A stretch of DNA of 42,917 nucleotides from the IMG/VR virus record IMGVR_UViG_2718218102_000002; one strand, 5' to 3'. Origin of the DNA: a virus (taxonomy: Duplodnaviria; Heunggongvirae; Uroviricota; Caudoviricetes). Numbering within the stretch: the stretch's first letter is position 1; each line of letters begins with the position of its first letter. Both the position numbers and the translations under genes were made by a program. Below, piece by piece: positions 1,635 to 29,615 of this stretch. The notes under the pieces were generated by a model. It had not been told where the DNA came from. It searched no databases and saw nothing but the letters and a program-made list of their open reading frames with translations.

Positions 1635-2216
1635 TTACCCTATAGGTGCTACTGGCCACTCAATATCCGGTACTACTGATGTATCAACACGGTTCAGCAA
1701 CACCCGATACTTTTTCCAGGCTTCCAGCAACAAGGTTTCTTCCTCCGTTGCGATCTCCAGATCTACAGCATCCTGAAGCGGCGCTATATGCTCACTGGCT
1801 ACCTGCATCAGGCTGTTTTTTGTTTCTTCCGCCTCCCGGATCCGGAACAGTTTTTCTGCTTCCGTATCCTTCACCCAGGCTGTACCGTTCCACTTCTGAA
1901 ACTCCCCTTCCGGGGATAACCAGGTGACATTTTCCGGTAATGAGCCGAGTTCAGAAATAAATAACGCGTCGCCGGAAGCCACGTCATAGACCGTTTTTCC
2001 CCGATGGTCTTCAACGAGATGCCACGATGCCTCATCACTGTTGAAAACAGCCACGAAGCCAGCCGGAATATCTGGCGGTGCAATATCGGTACTGTTTGCT
2101 GGCAGACCTGTATGAGGCGGAATGTATGCGTCACCTTCACCAATAAATTCATTAGTTCCGGCCAGCAGATTATAAATTTTTATGGTCCGTGGTTGTTCAC
2201 TCATTCTGAATGCCAT
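1635..2216 (-). CDS. tfa: Tail fiber assembly protein Tfa (lambda Tfa-like)
   Basis: 193-aa ORF starting [20 protein letters not shown], directly downstream of stf with a 1-nt TAATG stop/start overlap. Confidence 0.9.
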
Positions 2217-5056
2217 TATGCAAGCCTCACAATATAGTTAAATGCGATGTTTTTGACGGTGTTTTCCGCGTTACCAGCAGCGTTAACGGTGATGGTGTGT
2301 CCATGTGAGCCAATCGCAACAGAGTGCGTATGAGCACCAATACCGACAGTATGCGCGTGTGCACCCGCAGATGCTGCTGTGCCGGACAGTGAGTGTGTAT
2401 GGTTTCCTTCTGAAGATGATTTACCTACCCATTGGGAGGTGCCACTGGTTAATGAGCCACTGATACCAACCTGATTAGTCCCGCTAACTTGAGTACTCCC
2501 TGCCGGAAACATTCCAGTAGGTTGACTCCCGCTATTCGTTCTGGGCCCAGTCTGACTATGTTGGTGGGCCCCAGCTGAACTTGTAGAGCCGCTCAGACTG
2601 TGCGTATGCGCCCCGGTGTTATTCGTGGATTTAGTGCCGTAATCAAACGACGATGTGGTTTTCGTACCCAAATCCGTACTGGATGCGCTGGCGCTGTGGG
2701 TGTGCGATTTAATGCCGTCCTGTTCCTGAGACAATACGGTACGACCACTGGCGGGCTTGCCCTTAATCGTCCAGCCACGCATATCAGGGATCACGCCTGA
2801 CGGATAAGCGACTGCAAGTTTCGGGTAGGCAGATTTGTCAAAAGTCTGCCCCTGCATCAGGGCATAACCAGACGGAACGGTATCCGATGGCCACGGGATT
2901 GGTGCGCCAGGCGGATAAAACTGCTCTGATGGCGTATAGAGTGAATAAACTGTACCGTCCGTTAACCCTTCCGGCTTATTAGCAGAATATGCTGGTGACG
3001 TATGAATCGTCACGCTGGCATTACTGGTATAATCCCATTGAATATTTACACCAGTCGCATAATTTCCGATTGCAACGTAAATATCGTAAGTATCACCAGA
3101 TGTATTGACCCAGGCAAAATTTGTAAACCCTGCCGAAGTGCGCTGCCATAAAGCACCAGTAATCCCCTTCGGGTTACCATTACCTGCACGCAAAACAAGT
3201 TCAGATATACCTGCCTGTTGAGGTGAACCGACGTTATATCCAGCCCCACCAATCAACGTAATTGAAACAACAGAACTCGCCTGCGGCATGGTTACCGTTG
3301 CTAATTTGAACCAACCAGCACCACCGCTAAATGACATAGTTGTTGAGTTAAGCGTACCAATATCTTTCGGTGTCAGTGTTATATCCGCTGAAAGCGCCTT
3401 ACCATTCACCTTACGGGCAGAAGGTACCCGACCATTCGCATTGTCATTAGCTGCTTTCACTGCTTTCGGTGTCGCAGCAAGCGTTTCAGATGCGCTGTTG
3501 GTTGCACTACTGAGCTGGACAATTCCTTTTTGTGCTGTCGTAGCGTCCTGAGCGGTATATTTCCCGCTAGCCAGGTCATACGCGGCCTTAACGGCTTTTG
3601 GCGTTGCCGCCAGTGACTCGGAAGTGCTGTTAGTCGCACTGCTGAGCTGTACTATCCCCTTTTTCGTCGTGCTCGCATCCTCAAGCGCCACGGCGGATGC
3701 AATATCCTCTGCCCGTTTTGCTGCTGTCTCGGCGCGCGTTGCCGCGGATTCCGCCGTACTTTTGCTCTGAGCTGCCGCCGTCGCACTGCCAGCTGCCTCT
3801 GTCGCCTTCGTGGATGCCGTCGTGGCGCTGCCCTTCGCTGCTGACGCTTGTCTGGTCGCCTCATCTTTTGAAGCAGACGCCGATGATGCCGATGACGCCG
3901 CCGAACTGGCTGACGATGCGGCAGCCGTTTTTGAGGATTCTGCGCTGGTTTCCGACGCTTTCGCGTTCGTTTCGGATGTCTTCGCTGCGGAAGCTGACCT
4001 CGCTGCTGCCGTGGCCTGTTCAGTGGCTTCGCCAGCCTTCGTTGTGGCTGTTGAAGCGGATGATGCGGCGCTTTCTGCCGACTTTCCGGCAGCGGTGGCA
4101 CTGGCTGAGGCCTGCCCGGCATTTGTTGACGCGGCGCTGGCAGATGAGGCAGCCGCTGTTTTTGAGTCTGCTGCTGCGGAGGCACTCTGTGCTGCTGCCG
4201 TCTCAGAAGACTTAGCGTTCGTCTCGGACGTTTTTGCCGCCTTCGCGGAATTGCCTGCCGCTGTTGCCGAGGAGGCTGCACTACTGGCGCTCGAGGCTGC
4301 GCTCGTTTCTGATGATTTTGCCGCCTCTTTTGAAGCCGACGCATCTCTGGCTGAGGTGGCAGCTTCTGACGCTTTCGTGGTCGCGGTGGATGCAGAAGTG
4401 GCGGCTGATTGTTGTGACGCTGAAGCATTCGTTTCTGACGTTTTCGCCGCACCGGCACTGGTGGCCGCCGCGCTTTTTGAGGACTCTGCAGCGGCAGCAC
4501 TTTTTGATGCTTCAGTGGCCTTTGTTGATGCCGTTACTGCGCTGGAAGACGCTGACTGAGCCGACGACGCGGCCTGTCCGGCTGACGTGCTGGCTGCGCG
4601 TGCGGAGTCCGCAGCATCAGTCGCATGGGTTGCCGCCTCACGGGCTGATGTGCTGGCATCGCTGGCTGACTTCTTCGCGGCTGCCGTGTTCTGTGCCACC
4701 GCGGACGCGTTACGCGCCACCTCTTCCACCATCAGCTCAAAACGGCGCAGTGCCTCCGGACGGACATCATCCTCAGTCATGGCACCAAGAAAATCATTCA
4801 GCGTACCGGGTTGAGAATCTTCATACACGGTGATGGTCCCGGCATGTGACGGCGGGAATCCCTCCACCAACAGAATAACGCTGTACTGACCGTACTCAAC
4901 GTCCATACTGTAACGCCCGGCTTCATCCGGATTTTCAGATGCCAGCGTGTTCACCACCACCGTGGTGCTGTTACGTTTTGCTTTCAGCTGGATTGTGCAG
5001 TTCTGTACCGGTTTTCCTGTGCCGTCTTTCAGTACACCTGAAATCTTTACTGCCAT
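2216..5056 (-). CDS. stf: Side tail fiber protein Stf, with Ala/Ser-rich repeat core and His-rich C-terminal repeats
   Basis: N-terminus [20 protein letters not shown] as recalled for lambda Stf. The track start at 5062 is a GTG; the ATG at 5056 is preferred. Duplicated [12 protein letters not shown]...[11 protein letters not shown] motif and HTHS/AHxH repeats near the C-terminus. Confidence 0.9.
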
Positions 5057-5120: not shown

Positions 5121-5720
5121 TCAGAACTTATAACCGACACCCACGATGAAACCGTCAGTGCGCCAGTCACCACTGCCGGAACCTTCATAAGCAATATCAA
5201 TGGCCACGGATTCGGTCGGGTTAAACTGCACGCCAGCCCCCCACGCCAGAGACGTGTTGCTGTGGCGACCGTCATCACTTCCGGTCAGCACATCATGCGT
5301 TTTCCCCTTGTTGTCAGTTACGCGGAGATAATCCCCGGAAAAAGTCGACACACGGCTGTAAGCCACGCCCGCCATCGCATACGCACTGAACCATTCATTC
5401 ACGCGCACAGAGGGCCCCGCCATTACGCTGAACCAGCGGTTACGAACGGAATCTTCATGCCAGCGGGTATCGCTGTAACGGGTAAGCTGGCGATTCTTGT
5501 CTCCTGCATAGCTGAAAGACGTCACCATCCCCAGTGTGTCCGTAAACTCATAACGGTATTTCACGTTAATCCCGTTCAGATCATCGCTGCCGGGAACGTT
5601 CGTCGAGACATGAAGATACCCCGCGCTCAGCGTGGACTGATGTTCAGACGCCCATGCAGGCGTACCGGATACGGCCAGACAAATGGCTGCGGACAAAATG
5701 GCGGCATAAAGTTTACGCAT
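5121..5720 (-). CDS. lom: Outer membrane protein Lom (Ail/Lom family)
   Basis: 199 aa with signal peptide (…AVSGTPAWA) and C-terminal GYKF beta-barrel ending; sits between J and stf as in lambda. Confidence 0.9.
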
Positions 5721-5786: not shown

Positions 5787-9188
<3,402 letters not shown>

Positions 9189-26448: not shown

Positions 26449-26742
26449 ATGAAAAAAATGTTGTTTTCTGCCGCTCTGGCAATGCTTATTACAGGATGTG
26501 CTCAACAGACGTTTACTGTTGGAAACAAACCTACAGCAGTAACACCAAAGGAAACCATCACCCATCATTTCTTCGTTTCGGGAATTGGGCAGAAGAAAAC
26601 TGTCGATGCAGCAAAAATTTGTGGTGGTGCAGAAAATGTTGTTAAAACAGAAACCCAGCAAACATTCGTAAATGGATTGCTCGGTTTTATTACTTTAGGC
26701 ATTTATACTCCGCTGGAAGCGCGTGTGTATTGCTCACAATAA
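26449..26742 (+). CDS. bor: Bor lipoprotein (serum resistance)
   Basis: 97 aa, starting MKKMLFSAALAMLITGCAQQ; opposite strand to the late genes, between Rz and cos as in lambda. Confidence 0.9.
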   Translation: MKKMLFSAALAMLITGCAQQTFTVGNKPTAVTPKETITHHFFVSGIGQKKTVDAAKICGGAENVVKTETQQTFVNGLLGFITLGIYTPLEARVYCSQ

Positions 26743-28532: not shown

Positions 28533-29615
28533 ATGAAAAAATTAACAGTGGCAATTTCTGCTGTAGCTGCATCAGTACTGATGGCGATGTCTGCTCAGGC
28601 AGCTGAAATTTATAATAAAGACAGTAACAAGCTGGATCTATACGGGAAAGTTAATGCCAAGCACTACTTCTCCTCTAATGATGCAGATGATGGTGATACT
28701 ACTTATGCCCGTCTTGGCTTCAAAGGTGAAACCCAAATCAACGATCAACTGACTGGTTTCGGTCAGTGGGAATATGAATTCAAAGGCAACCGTGCTGAAT
28801 CTCAAGGTTCTTCCAAAGACAAAACCCGTCTTGCATTTGCAGGCCTGAAATTTGGTGATTACGGCTCAATCGATTACGGCCGTAACTACGGTGTAGCATA
28901 CGACATCGGTGCGTGGACTGACGTTCTGCCAGAATTCGGTGGTGATACCTGGACCCAAACAGATGTGTTCATGACTGGTCGCACTACTGGTGTTGCAACT
29001 TATCGTAACAACGACTTCTTTGGTCTGGTCGATGGCCTGAACTTTGCTGCTCAGTATCAGGGTAAAAATGACCGCACTGACGTAACTGAAGCCAATGGTG
29101 ATGGTTTCGGTTTCTCCACTACTTATGAGTATGAAGGATTCGGCGTGGGTGCAACCTATGCTAAATCAGATCGCACTGACGGTCAGGTCGCCTATGGTAA
29201 GAGCAAATTCAATGCCTCCGGCAAAAATGCGGAAGTATGGGCTGCAGGCCTGAAATATGATGCGAACAATATCTATCTGGCTACCACATATTCTGAAACT
29301 CAGAATATGACCGTTTTTGGTAATAACCATATTGCAAACAAAGCACAAAACTTTGAAGCAGTAGCACAATATCAGTTTGACTTCGGTCTGCGTCCATCTG
29401 TTGCTTACCTTCAGTCAAAAGGTAAAGACCTTGGTGTTCATGGTGACCGAGACTTAGTCAAGTATGTCGATGTCGGTGCTACTTACTACTTTAATAAAAA
29501 CATGTCCACTTTTGTTGATTACAAAATCAACTTAATTGACGATAGTAAGTTTACCAAAACAGCTGGTATTGATACCGACGACATCGTCGCTGTAGGTCTG
29601 GTTTATCAGTTCTAA
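28533..29615 (+). CDS. Outer membrane porin, OmpC/OmpF/NmpC (Lc-like) family
   Basis: Start set at MKKLTVAIS with a cleavable signal peptide; classic porin N-terminus [16 protein letters not shown] and C-terminal VGLVYQF. Confidence 0.85.

Follow-up and report, generated by a model that had tools for sequence, protein, structure and literature searches.

The gene for the side tail fiber (stf) in this viral DNA has at its center a low-complexity stretch rich in Ala, Ser, and Thr whose DNA is open in several reading frames, and the question is what this stretch is: a repeat array that recombines, a place where more than one gene is encoded, or a structural part of the fiber. We analyzed the whole 42,917-nucleotide sequence in which the gene lies (here, the window). 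The analysis makes it very probable that the stretch (here, the core) is the proximal coiled-coil shaft of the fiber, a conserved spacer, that specificity is swapped downstream of it, and that the extra open reading frames (ORFs) are by-products of its composition.

The DNA concerned lies in the middle of a lambda-type stf gene on the minus strand, and its context is a complete lambdoid prophage of uropathogenic Escherichia coli (Table 1). The gene had been called a side tail fiber from the sequence alone, and this was borne out by the PF08400 profile, the match to PDB 9E7M, and the gene order. The RefSeq call for the coding sequence is identical (WP_024179053.1), and the Pfam domains in the protein are PF08400 (phage_tail_N), two copies of Phage_fiber_2, Collar, and Phage_fiber. 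PF08400 extends over residues 1 to 134 (E value, 4.3e-72), and residues 1 to 94 match the collar domain of Ur-lambda Stf (PDB 9E7M/9MGH; E value, 3.9e-52), differing from it at 5 positions. The order J-lom-stf-tfa, with all four genes on the minus strand and tfa overlapping the stf stop codon, is the position of a lambda-type Stf gene. The protein carries the marks of this type, that is, the collar domain, the gene position, a long coiled coil, and a gp37-like C terminus.

TABLE 1 Features of the side tail fiber locus (positions in the window)
Feature	Position	Strand	Basis or remark
tfa, tail fiber assembly chaperone	1635..2216	-	PF02413, E value 8.8e-44; phrog_105; RefSeq annotation
stf, side tail fiber gene	2216..5056	-	ATG at 5056, 946 aa plus stop; ORF and translation
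T4 gp37-like distal receptor-binding domain, aa 700-946, 7 HxH	2219..2959	-	PDB 2XGF, E value 1.4e-82; Pfam Collar, Phage_fiber
Hypervariable tip cassette between HxH motifs 3 and 4, aa 834-885	2402..2557	-	
Exchangeable middle module, aa 547-699	2960..3418	-	phrog_3299 and phrog_21552 matches
Phage_fiber_2 repeat 2, aa 506-546	3419..3541	-	PF03406; direct repeat
Phage_fiber_2 repeat 1, aa 462-502	3551..3673	-	PF03406; direct repeat family, 132-nt spacing
A/S/T-rich heptad core, aa 105-460, ~50 heptads xAxxSAx	3677..4744	-	Composition, lag-7 autocorrelation, heptad columns, 21-nt spacings
N-terminal collar/anchor domain plus linker, aa 1-104	4745..5056	-	PF08400, PDB 9E7M/9MGH; limits after PMC12617516
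Shadow ORF, +1 frame of the stf strand, 282 aa	3652..4500	-	Within shuffle length expectation
Antisense shadow ORF, 249 aa	3810..4559	+	Frame and locus of lambda orf206b; phrog_560 member
Second antisense open frame, split 3697..4215 and 4234..4833	3697..4833	+	ORF list
lom	5121..5720	-	Upstream of stf
J	5787..9185	-	Upstream of lom

The initial annotation had placed the Ala/Ser/Thr core at positions 2600 to 4700. Such a core is real, with these three residues making up 70 to 80% of the protein in 50-aa blocks, compared with 18 to 46% elsewhere in Stf, but it is confined to 3677-4744. The two kinds of unit described for it could be counted: KTSETNA occurs three times (residues 205, 275, and 359 of Stf) and AAxSAS eight times, and K[ST]SET recurs five times. 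The periodicity is a property of the protein. Identity autocorrelation gave z scores of 7.7 to 10.6 at each multiple of 7 residues up to a lag of 56, with values at or under background at other lags, and the heptad phase is not broken anywhere across ca. 350 residues. When the 51 heptads are aligned, 47 have Ala in column 2 (92%), 36 have Ser in column 5 (71%), and 35 have Ala in column 6 (69%), so that the core positions of the heptad hold small residues, and large hydrophobic residues are almost absent. At the DNA level, repeats with 60 to 77% identity are mostly spaced by multiples of 21 nt.

Repeats of this kind had been put forward as substrates for recombinational host-range variation. 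In its strongest form, this would make the core an active repeat array resembling a contingency locus, in which unequal crossing-over alters the length or specificity of the fiber and hence the host range. The five K[ST]SET units are what such an array might contain, but the DNA does not behave like one. Tandem Repeats Finder (minimum score, 30) detected in the core only a 25-nt array with a period of 9, which led us to abandon a tandem repeat of the DNA for a periodicity of the protein. There are no exact internal repeats of more than 11 nt in the core, the number of 10-mer pairs equals the codon-shuffle expectation, and the best internal duplicate shares 71% identity as protein and only 58% as DNA.

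The comparison of alleles bears on the same question, as close homologs had been expected to vary in repeat length. Core length turned out to be essentially constant by three independent sampling routes, being identical in >90% of alleles. The first fiber repeat begins at residue 467 in 74 of the 80 IMG/VR viral loci sampled, across which the complete Stf protein has between 388 and 1252 aa; the core is unchanged in length in 115 of a sample of 120 protein-cluster representatives; and 48 of 50 sampled full-coverage matches in complete E. coli genomes span the base count of the query, down to 88% identity. At least 80% of the core is present in 3591 of 5426 complete E. coli genomes, in which core-containing places number roughly 6700. 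Between the landmarks EEV and AEDIA, there are 48 heptads in most E. coli prophages and 33 in lambda.

The shaft length is not absolutely fixed, and some recombination does occur inside the core. Large indels are rare, and those found measured 28, 105, 112, and 119 aa, that is, 4, 15, 16, and 17 heptads. For instance, in one allele (L052) the missing 112 aa are exactly those that separate two K[ST]SET-type motifs, and lambda lacks 105 aa, both of which would suit a recombining array. The same can be said of a recurrent allele class (mEp460, Ayreon, L066, and several genomes), in which the sequence switches at core nt 527-530, in the KTSETNA near residue 281, and of the sharing of part of the core with fibers of 100- to 115-kb phages and plasmids. 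Chimeric junctions within the core preserve the heptad phase; a minority of alleles have junctions in register, or have lost whole heptads, within the core, in some cases at K[ST]SET. There are also rare alleles with core indels of +3, -3, +4, or +9 aa, which are out of heptad phase. Against this, 71 of 80 junctions were mapped outside the core, to downstream positions where Phage_fiber_2 repeats end. The reading of the core as a recombinational repeat array is largely refuted by these data, and we regard it as very improbable. What stands of the original proposal is that the number of 44-aa Phage_fiber_2 units varies from 0 to 4 among alleles and that a minority of junctions fall within the core.

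The junction map is in keeping with the preferred reading, a conserved shaft followed by exchangeable parts. The commonest allele junction is the end of Phage_fiber_2 repeat 1, at gene nt 1482 (41 alleles), and the second commonest is the end of repeat 2, at gene nt 1614-1625. Further clusters were found at gene nt 2135-2149, 2468-2493, and 2645-2660, the last two flanking the tip cassette. The middle module is replaced in most alleles; the fiber of phage Cyrano carries the same one. Among 49 alleles with seven HxH motifs, the tip cassette was represented by 20 distinct sequences of 32 to 53 aa, belonging to ca. 8 visibly unrelated types. Specificity would then change by swaps of modules downstream of the conserved shaft, for which the 44-aa Phage_fiber_2 repeats and the HxH blocks of the gp37-like needle around the tip cassette may serve as homology anchors.

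The C terminus had been described as carrying His-rich HTHS repeats. It has seven HxH motifs, four of which are H[ST]HS, at residues 785 to 920; in the window, they occupy 2297-2704, partly outside the interval given for the core in that description. The C-terminal 247 aa align with the tip of T4 gp37, with all seven HxH motifs in register. Stf differs from T4 gp37 in its head, or tip (the segment from HxH motif 3 to motif 4), which is unrelated and longer, and the remaining protein is not T4-like. In the T4 gp37 structure of 2010, Bartual and colleagues reportedly found seven iron ions bound by the HxH motifs along a needle of six strands.

Other fibers share individual modules with this one. 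The Mu S, P2 H, and P1 S fibers (PF03406; PDB 5YVQ) have in common with it the 44-aa GIVQLSSA...LAATPKAVK unit, and PDB 5YVQ (Mu fiber S) matches Stf residues 491 to 551. Those three belong to contractile-tail phages and have N-terminal anchors other than that of Stf. The unit is a junction between modules, and engineered lambda-P2 chimeras were joined at it (PMC11338833). In phage Cyrano, an N terminus annotated as P1 S-like is combined with the coiled-coil segment found here. The StfR fiber of the Rac prophage of E. coli K-12 and related "prophage tail fiber N-terminal domain-containing" proteins have the same N-terminal domain and a core of equal length, 1068 nt, at ca. 95% DNA identity; they differ distally, beyond the first Phage_fiber_2 repeat, with a region of ca. 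3369 nt versus 2847 nt for the query. Fibers of the StfR type predominate in E. coli genomes. A search with the core alone returned 932 matches, including proteins of 2000 to 6200 aa with many matching stretches, whose homology we did not take as shown beyond a shared coiled-coil composition. One large protein among the matches is a giant J-like tail tip protein.

The core DNA had been reported to be open in two plus-strand frames and in one more minus-strand frame, and the ORFs 3810..4559 and 3697..4215/4234..4833 on the plus strand and 3652..4500 on the minus strand confirm it. These ORFs had also been taken for spurious. Core codons are nearly all GCN, TCN, ACN, AGY, AAR, or GAR, so few stops occur in three of the other five frames, and long meaningless ORFs result. 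The longest open run in the frame of 3810..4559 is 262 codons, compared with 251 ± 75 when codon order is shuffled, and the corresponding values in the remaining two alternative frames are 285 versus 210 ± 67 and 178 versus 112 ± 39 codons. The alternative ORFs are most probably spurious, being as long as the composition predicts; the stops scattered among alleles in the second antisense frame agree with this.

That one of these frames is nevertheless a real overlapping gene seems to us very improbable, though not as improbable as the last reading considered below. The best candidate is ORF 3810..4559, the counterpart of orf206b, an annotated ORF of lambda (lambdap90), with which it shares frame and locus; both match phrog_560 (E values, 2e-118 and 1.7e-59), a full-length family built up around the ORF. 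The lambda ORF has 206 aa versus 249 aa here, the starts differ, and both are putative genes. A translated gene in this frame would be kept almost for free via wobble positions shared with stf. At codon positions 1, 2, and 3, the diversity among stf alleles is 0.028, 0.024, and 0.136, respectively, and the excess at position 3 is compatible with such an ORF, because the wobble positions of the two frames coincide and the measure is blind to it. Intactness of the orf206b frame among alleles is equally uninformative, given that only ca. 1.5 stops are expected. Transversion diversity was 0.032 at sites fourfold degenerate in stf and twofold in the antisense frame versus 0.083 at sites fourfold in both (one-sided P = 0.03), a weak deficit that a constrained ORF might produce and the sole hint in favor of this one, but transitions are also reduced at these sites and the trend recurs outside the ORF, which points to an effect of sequence context. 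Besides its shuffle-like length, other properties of the ORF speak against a gene. Its N terminus differs between lambda and this allele, with an upstream stop in only 39 of 66 alleles; the product is acidic and of low complexity, with PHROG matches only to families of unknown function from the same locus; PGAP makes no call for 3810..4559; and CRISPRi knockdown of orf206b in lambda caused no plaque defect (PMC10695390).

In the case of the second antisense frame, a single stop was found where 8.1 ± 2.2 were expected by synonymous permutation, a depletion that could likewise suggest a gene. CT|A is avoided throughout the prophage, at 0.60 of expectation (41 NCT|A junctions observed versus 68.6 expected over all window genes), and this explains the depletion only in part. 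The frame contains 0 to 4 stops per allele, at 18 different positions among 66 alleles. A hidden gene here was rejected on the grounds of the NCT|A avoidance, the scattered stops, and the fact that positions 1/2 of this frame include the variable position 3 of stf. The N terminus of ORF 3697..4215 matches phrog_3324; ORF 3652..4500 had no PHROG match.

With regard to structure, helix was predicted throughout the core. The AlphaFold2 model, a single-sequence monomer of residues 90 to 560 (mean pLDDT, 67; pTM, 0.26) that we read for secondary structure only, has helices at residues 95 to 382 and 398 to 475, with block-mean pLDDT values mostly between 72 and 89 and two low-confidence dips. The model folds back into a hairpin, bending at the two low-confidence points, which is unrealistic. 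In Ur-lambda Stf (UniProt P03764; orf-401 plus orf-314 in lambda PaPa), residues 102 to 393 were modeled as a proximal trimeric coiled coil on the basis of cryo-EM, cryo-electron tomography (cryo-ET), and AlphaFold3 (PMC12617516). Lambda Stf aligns colinearly with this allele, residues 102 onward included, save for one 105-aa gap. Least probable of all, and hardly credible, is that the core is an intrinsically disordered, possibly modified, low-complexity tether that is flexible instead of a folded rod, for although its composition, with large hydrophobic residues so scarce, and the only moderate confidence of the monomer model would fit, the strict and unbroken 7-residue register, the large indels in heptad multiples, the phase kept in chimeras, the predicted helix, and the proximal fiber of Ur-lambda, which in cryo-ET is a rod rotating as a rigid body (PMC12617516), all argue against it.

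For the coiled-coil shaft, we propose that the small residues at column 2 (Ala) and at columns 5 and 6 (Ser or Ala) would form the center of a parallel alpha-helical coiled coil that is long and thin. Three such chains, a number suggested by the Ur-lambda cryo-EM and AlphaFold3 model, would form a rigid proximal shaft keeping the receptor-binding tip away from the tail. At a rise of ca. 0.15 nm per residue, it would be ca. 52 nm long, probably ca. 15 nm (15 heptads) longer than that of Ur-lambda. A coiled coil almost without large hydrophobic core residues is unusual, and its stability is assumed from the work on lambda.

Beyond the collar, the Ur-lambda fiber has in common with this one the linker and the heptad coiled coil, both colinear, a Phage_fiber_2 unit, the gp37-like HxH C terminus, and the gene order, with ca. 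86 to 87% DNA identity in the aligned parts of the gene. It differs in its coiled coil, which is shorter by the 105 aa of the gap, in having one Phage_fiber_2 unit versus two here, in the absence of the middle module, where lambda has a distal segment of its own, and in the tip cassette. Ur-lambda Stf is a homotrimer that binds OmpC and is present as four fibers per virion (PMC12617516, PMC11338833). Working engineered chimeras of lambda Stf were fused at R393 or S528, with the coiled coil kept (PMC11338833).

The feature is of an already known kind, and the current understanding of side tail fibers is unchanged by it. Low-complexity Ala/Ser/Thr coiled coils of fibers yield long ORFs on both strands, which is a matter of annotation hygiene: lambda orf206b, PHROG 560 and 3324, and the "hypothetical proteins" of phage ev099 are shadow ORFs now in databases, to be treated as stf shadows. 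The very strongly conserved length of the shaft, together with large changes by whole heptads, suggests a spacer whose length is defined, as opposed to a variable element. Modules of the fiber are naturally swapped where each Phage_fiber_2 unit ends, where the gp37-like domain starts, and at the HxH blocks on either side of the tip cassette. These points coincide with the fusion points of engineered lambda fibers and provide a practical map for retargeting.

The window corresponds to NZ_CP025703.1 1286094-1329010 (E. coli BH100N substr. MG2017, a urine isolate) in reverse complement and contains an entire lambdoid prophage (int through tfa) that adjoins sitD. The gene studied here had been named stf in the initial annotation, and an identical CDS is found in RefSeq as "phage tail protein." Besides the Pfam domains listed in the table, the product matched three solved structures, namely, the Ur-lambda Stf collar domain 9E7M at aa 1-94 (E 4e-52), the Mu fibre S 5YVQ at aa 491-551, and the T4 gp37 tip 2XGF at aa 700-946 (E 1.4e-82). 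The name is therefore correct, in keeping also with J and lom upstream and tfa downstream, and the gene is intact and unexceptional within the lambda/Rac-type side tail fibre family. Three close homologues (P0005, P0014, and P0017) bear the database name "short-chain fatty acid transporter, partial," an evident misannotation. The label "partial" is attached to most entries for close homologues, suggesting that stf is a usual break point for short-read assemblies.

Features of the side tail fibre gene, its product, and its neighbors
Feature	Position	Strand	Remarks
stf	2216..5056	-	946 aa; contains the interval flagged by the initial annotation
PF08400	aa 1-134 of Stf		Pfam
Phage_fiber_2 units (two)	aa 462-502, aa 506-546 of Stf		Pfam
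Collar domain	aa 717-764 of Stf		Pfam
GxHxH "Phage_fiber" match	aa 812-825 of Stf		Pfam
J	5787..9185	-	upstream of stf, same strand
lom	5121..5720	-	upstream of stf; Ail/Lom outer-membrane family
tfa	1635..2216	-	downstream of stf, overlaps the stf stop codon

Ala/Ser/Thr repeats had been placed at 2600-4700. They are present but take up only about half of that interval: the A/S/T-rich core corresponds to Stf aa 105-460 (window 3677-4744), with 70 to 80% A+S+T per 50-aa block, and includes the KTSETNA-like units (KTSETNA three times) and AAxSAS stretches (eight times) described before. Residue identity within the core was 0.37 to 0.42 at all multiples of lag 7 (z 7.7 to 10.6) and did not exceed background at other lags. 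Written in sevens, the core reads xAxxSAx for ca. 50 heptads with no phase break (Ala in 47/51 at column 2, Ser in 36/51 at column 5, and Ala in 35/51 at column 6), and the spacings of its degenerate DNA repeat families are mostly multiples of 21 nt. A tandem repeat at the DNA level was rejected, as TRF detected no array in the core except one of 25 nt, the longest exact internal repeat was 11 nt, shared 10-mers were as numerous as expected from shuffling, and the best internal duplicate (aa 264-298 versus aa 348-382) was 71% identical in protein but 58% in DNA. Thus, the core is a protein heptad repeat and not a DNA tandem repeat.

An AF2 monomer model of aa 90-560 was helical at aa 95-382 and 398-475 (block-mean pLDDT mostly 72 to 89). 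In Ur-lambda Stf, residues 1-91 form the collar domain, 92-101 the linker, and 102-393 the proximal trimeric coiled coil, which is followed by a hinge and a distal domain; each virion carries four fibres (12 Stf copies), which bind OmpC (PMC12617516). Lambda orf-401 is colinear with our Stf except for 105 aa missing from lambda, equivalent to aa 304-408 here, or exactly 15 heptads. Based on the heptads, the modeled helices, the Ur-lambda parts, and this colinearity, we read the core as the probable proximal coiled-coil shaft of the fibre. At ca. 0.15 nm per residue, the shaft would measure ca. 52 nm, versus ca. 43 nm in lambda.

The comparison of stf alleles that the initial annotation had proposed for detecting repeat-length variation gave a near-constant core length in three independent samples (IMG/VR loci, protein clusters, and complete E. 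coli genomes). The first sample consisted of 80 loci with an N-domain at least 98% identical. Stf ranged from 388 to 1,252 aa in the 64 with a complete gene, and the first fibre repeat began at aa 467 in 74 of the 80 as well as in the window's own allele. The exceptions were L019 (−105 aa, as lambda), L052 (−112 aa, the deletion falling between two AAK[ST]SET motifs), L018 (+4 aa), L079 (+9 aa), and L066, a chimera joined at gene nt 842. Among 120 cluster representatives (90% identity), 115 had the same core length, and the other five comprised +3 aa, −3 aa (two clusters), −28 aa, and one without the landmark motif. At least 80% of the core was present in 3,591 of 5,426 complete E. coli genomes. 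In a sample taken at even intervals along the ranked matches, 50 covered at least 98% of it; 48 of these had a span equal to the query at 88 to 100% identity, and the remaining two were shorter by 3 nt and 1 nt. One further match lacked 357 nt (17 heptads). All four distinct large indel sizes were multiples of 7 aa (4, 15, 16, and 17 heptads), for which the chance among in-frame indels is ca. (1/7)^4. Most core diversity fell at the third position of stf codons (0.136, versus 0.028 and 0.024 at the other two), so the Stf reading frame is under purifying selection. We take the core to be a length-conserved coiled-coil spacer.

Recombination within the core does occur but is rare relative to downstream junctions. 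One class of alleles that recurs (mEp460, Ayreon, vB_EcoS-640R1, PhiR70_1, L066, and several genomes) departs from our sequence at core nt 527-530, inside KTSETNA, and fibres of ca. 100- to 115-kb phages and plasmids (Cyrano and CMS-2020a) carry the core from nt 222 onward behind another N-terminus, annotated as P1 S-like. The heptad phase was unbroken across both kinds of junction. The 1,341-aa fibre of phage Cyrano (108 kb; L084 2969-6994; also in matches H100, H182, and H183) shares with this stf the coiled-coil DNA (ca. 90% identity), the fibre repeat, and the middle module. Seven database proteins of 2,800 to 6,200 aa (P0147, P0149, P0150, P0159, P0191, P0195, and P0243) contain 6 to 16 separate Ala-rich xAxx[ST]Ax heptad stretches, and one of them, P0147, has J-type tail tip domains at its N-terminus. 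It appears that such giant proteins are commonly extended by modules of very long Ala-rich coiled coil.

Mapping stf from all 80 IMG/VR loci against our allele by BLASTN showed where alleles differ. In 41 alleles, the 5' colinear block stopped at gene nt 1482, where the first Phage_fiber_2 unit ends, and in 30 alleles, it stopped at the end of the second unit (nt 1614-1625). Similarity returned where the gp37-like domain starts (nt 2135-2149), broke again at nt 2468-2493, and resumed at nt 2645-2660. The 44-aa Phage_fiber_2 unit was found in 0, 1, 2, 3, or 4 copies in 1, 34, 21, 8, and 1 alleles, respectively, at a fixed spacing of 44 aa. Therefore, a copy-number-variable repeat does exist in the flagged interval, and it is this unit, not the A/S/T heptads. 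The His-rich C-terminus noted before was confirmed as seven HxH motifs at aa 785-920 (window 2297-2704), all of which align with those of T4 gp37 (2XGF). In 2XGF, these motifs reportedly (Bartual et al., 2010) coordinate seven iron ions along a six-stranded needle, and by analogy, those of our Stf may bind metal. Between motifs 3 and 4, we found 20 distinct segments among 49 alleles, of about 8 visibly unrelated types (32 to 53 aa); by homology with gp37, this segment is the distal tip. The A/S/T repeats had been proposed as the substrate for host-range recombination, a role that these data do not support: core length is conserved, and variation is concentrated in the middle module, the tip cassette, and the Phage_fiber_2 units. 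Working engineered lambda Stf chimeras were fused at R393, just past the fibre repeat, or at S528, both retaining the whole coiled coil (PMC11338833).

Three other frames are indeed open across the core, at 3810..4559 (+), 3697..4215 and 4234..4833 (+), and 3652..4500 (−). Core codons are almost exclusively GCN, TCN, ACN, AGY, AAR, and GAR. Codon-order shuffling in these three frames revealed no openness beyond chance, with longest stop-free runs of 262, 285, and 178 codons against 251 ± 75, 210 ± 67, and 112 ± 39 expected. A coding role could be argued from one antisense frame (3697-4833, + frame 1), with 1 stop versus 8.1 ± 2.2 under synonymous permutation. The sense trinucleotide behind this depletion, CTA spanning a codon junction (NCT|A), is also scarce in all the prophage's other genes (41 versus 68.6 expected); the depletion in the core (1 versus 7.4) exceeds that bias. 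Among 66 distinct alleles, this frame had 0 to 4 stops at 18 different positions. The 249-aa ORF 3810..4559 is the counterpart of the lambda antisense ORF orf206b (lambdap90), both being in phrog_560, and phrog_3324 matches the N-terminus of ORF 3697..4215. Codon-position diversity is blind to the orf206b frame because it shares its wobble position with stf. Sites fourfold in stf and twofold in the orf206b frame had a weak transversion deficit (P = 0.03), for which a context effect is likelier, since transitions were also reduced and the trend extended outside the antisense ORF. Knockdown of orf206b by CRISPRi left lambda plaques without a phenotype (PMC10695390), and PGAP called none of the alternative-frame ORFs. 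We treated all of these ORFs as shadows of stf, in agreement with the initial annotation. The stf of phage ev099 is fragmented, and its annotation is given as antisense "hypothetical proteins." These and lambda orf206b are included in PHROG 560, 3324, and 24241 ("unknown function"; L081 2004-2624 and L082 1504-2366), which appear to have been assembled from shadow ORFs antisense to the coiled-coil part of stf. A 564-aa ORF antisense within J (6561-8255, +), in its 60 to 64% GC part, is probably another composition-driven shadow.

Elsewhere in the prophage, Rfam IS009 (RF02111) had a full-length match at 1675-1873 (−; 221 bits), wholly within the tfa CDS, and may be just conserved tfa coding DNA. 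Between tfa and the chromosomal sitD, positions 1050-1650 have 28 to 32% GC (surroundings, ca. 50%) and are presumably the prophage end, or attachment-site junction. The serum resistance gene iss (26449-26742, +; RefSeq) and lom are typical lysogenic-conversion cargo for extraintestinal E. coli. A porin gene (28533-29615, +; RefSeq "ompC") lies between the Q-type antiterminator (quuD) and the lysis genes. It is noteworthy because lambda-type Stf binds OmpC, and a porin borne by the prophage might conceivably affect superinfection.
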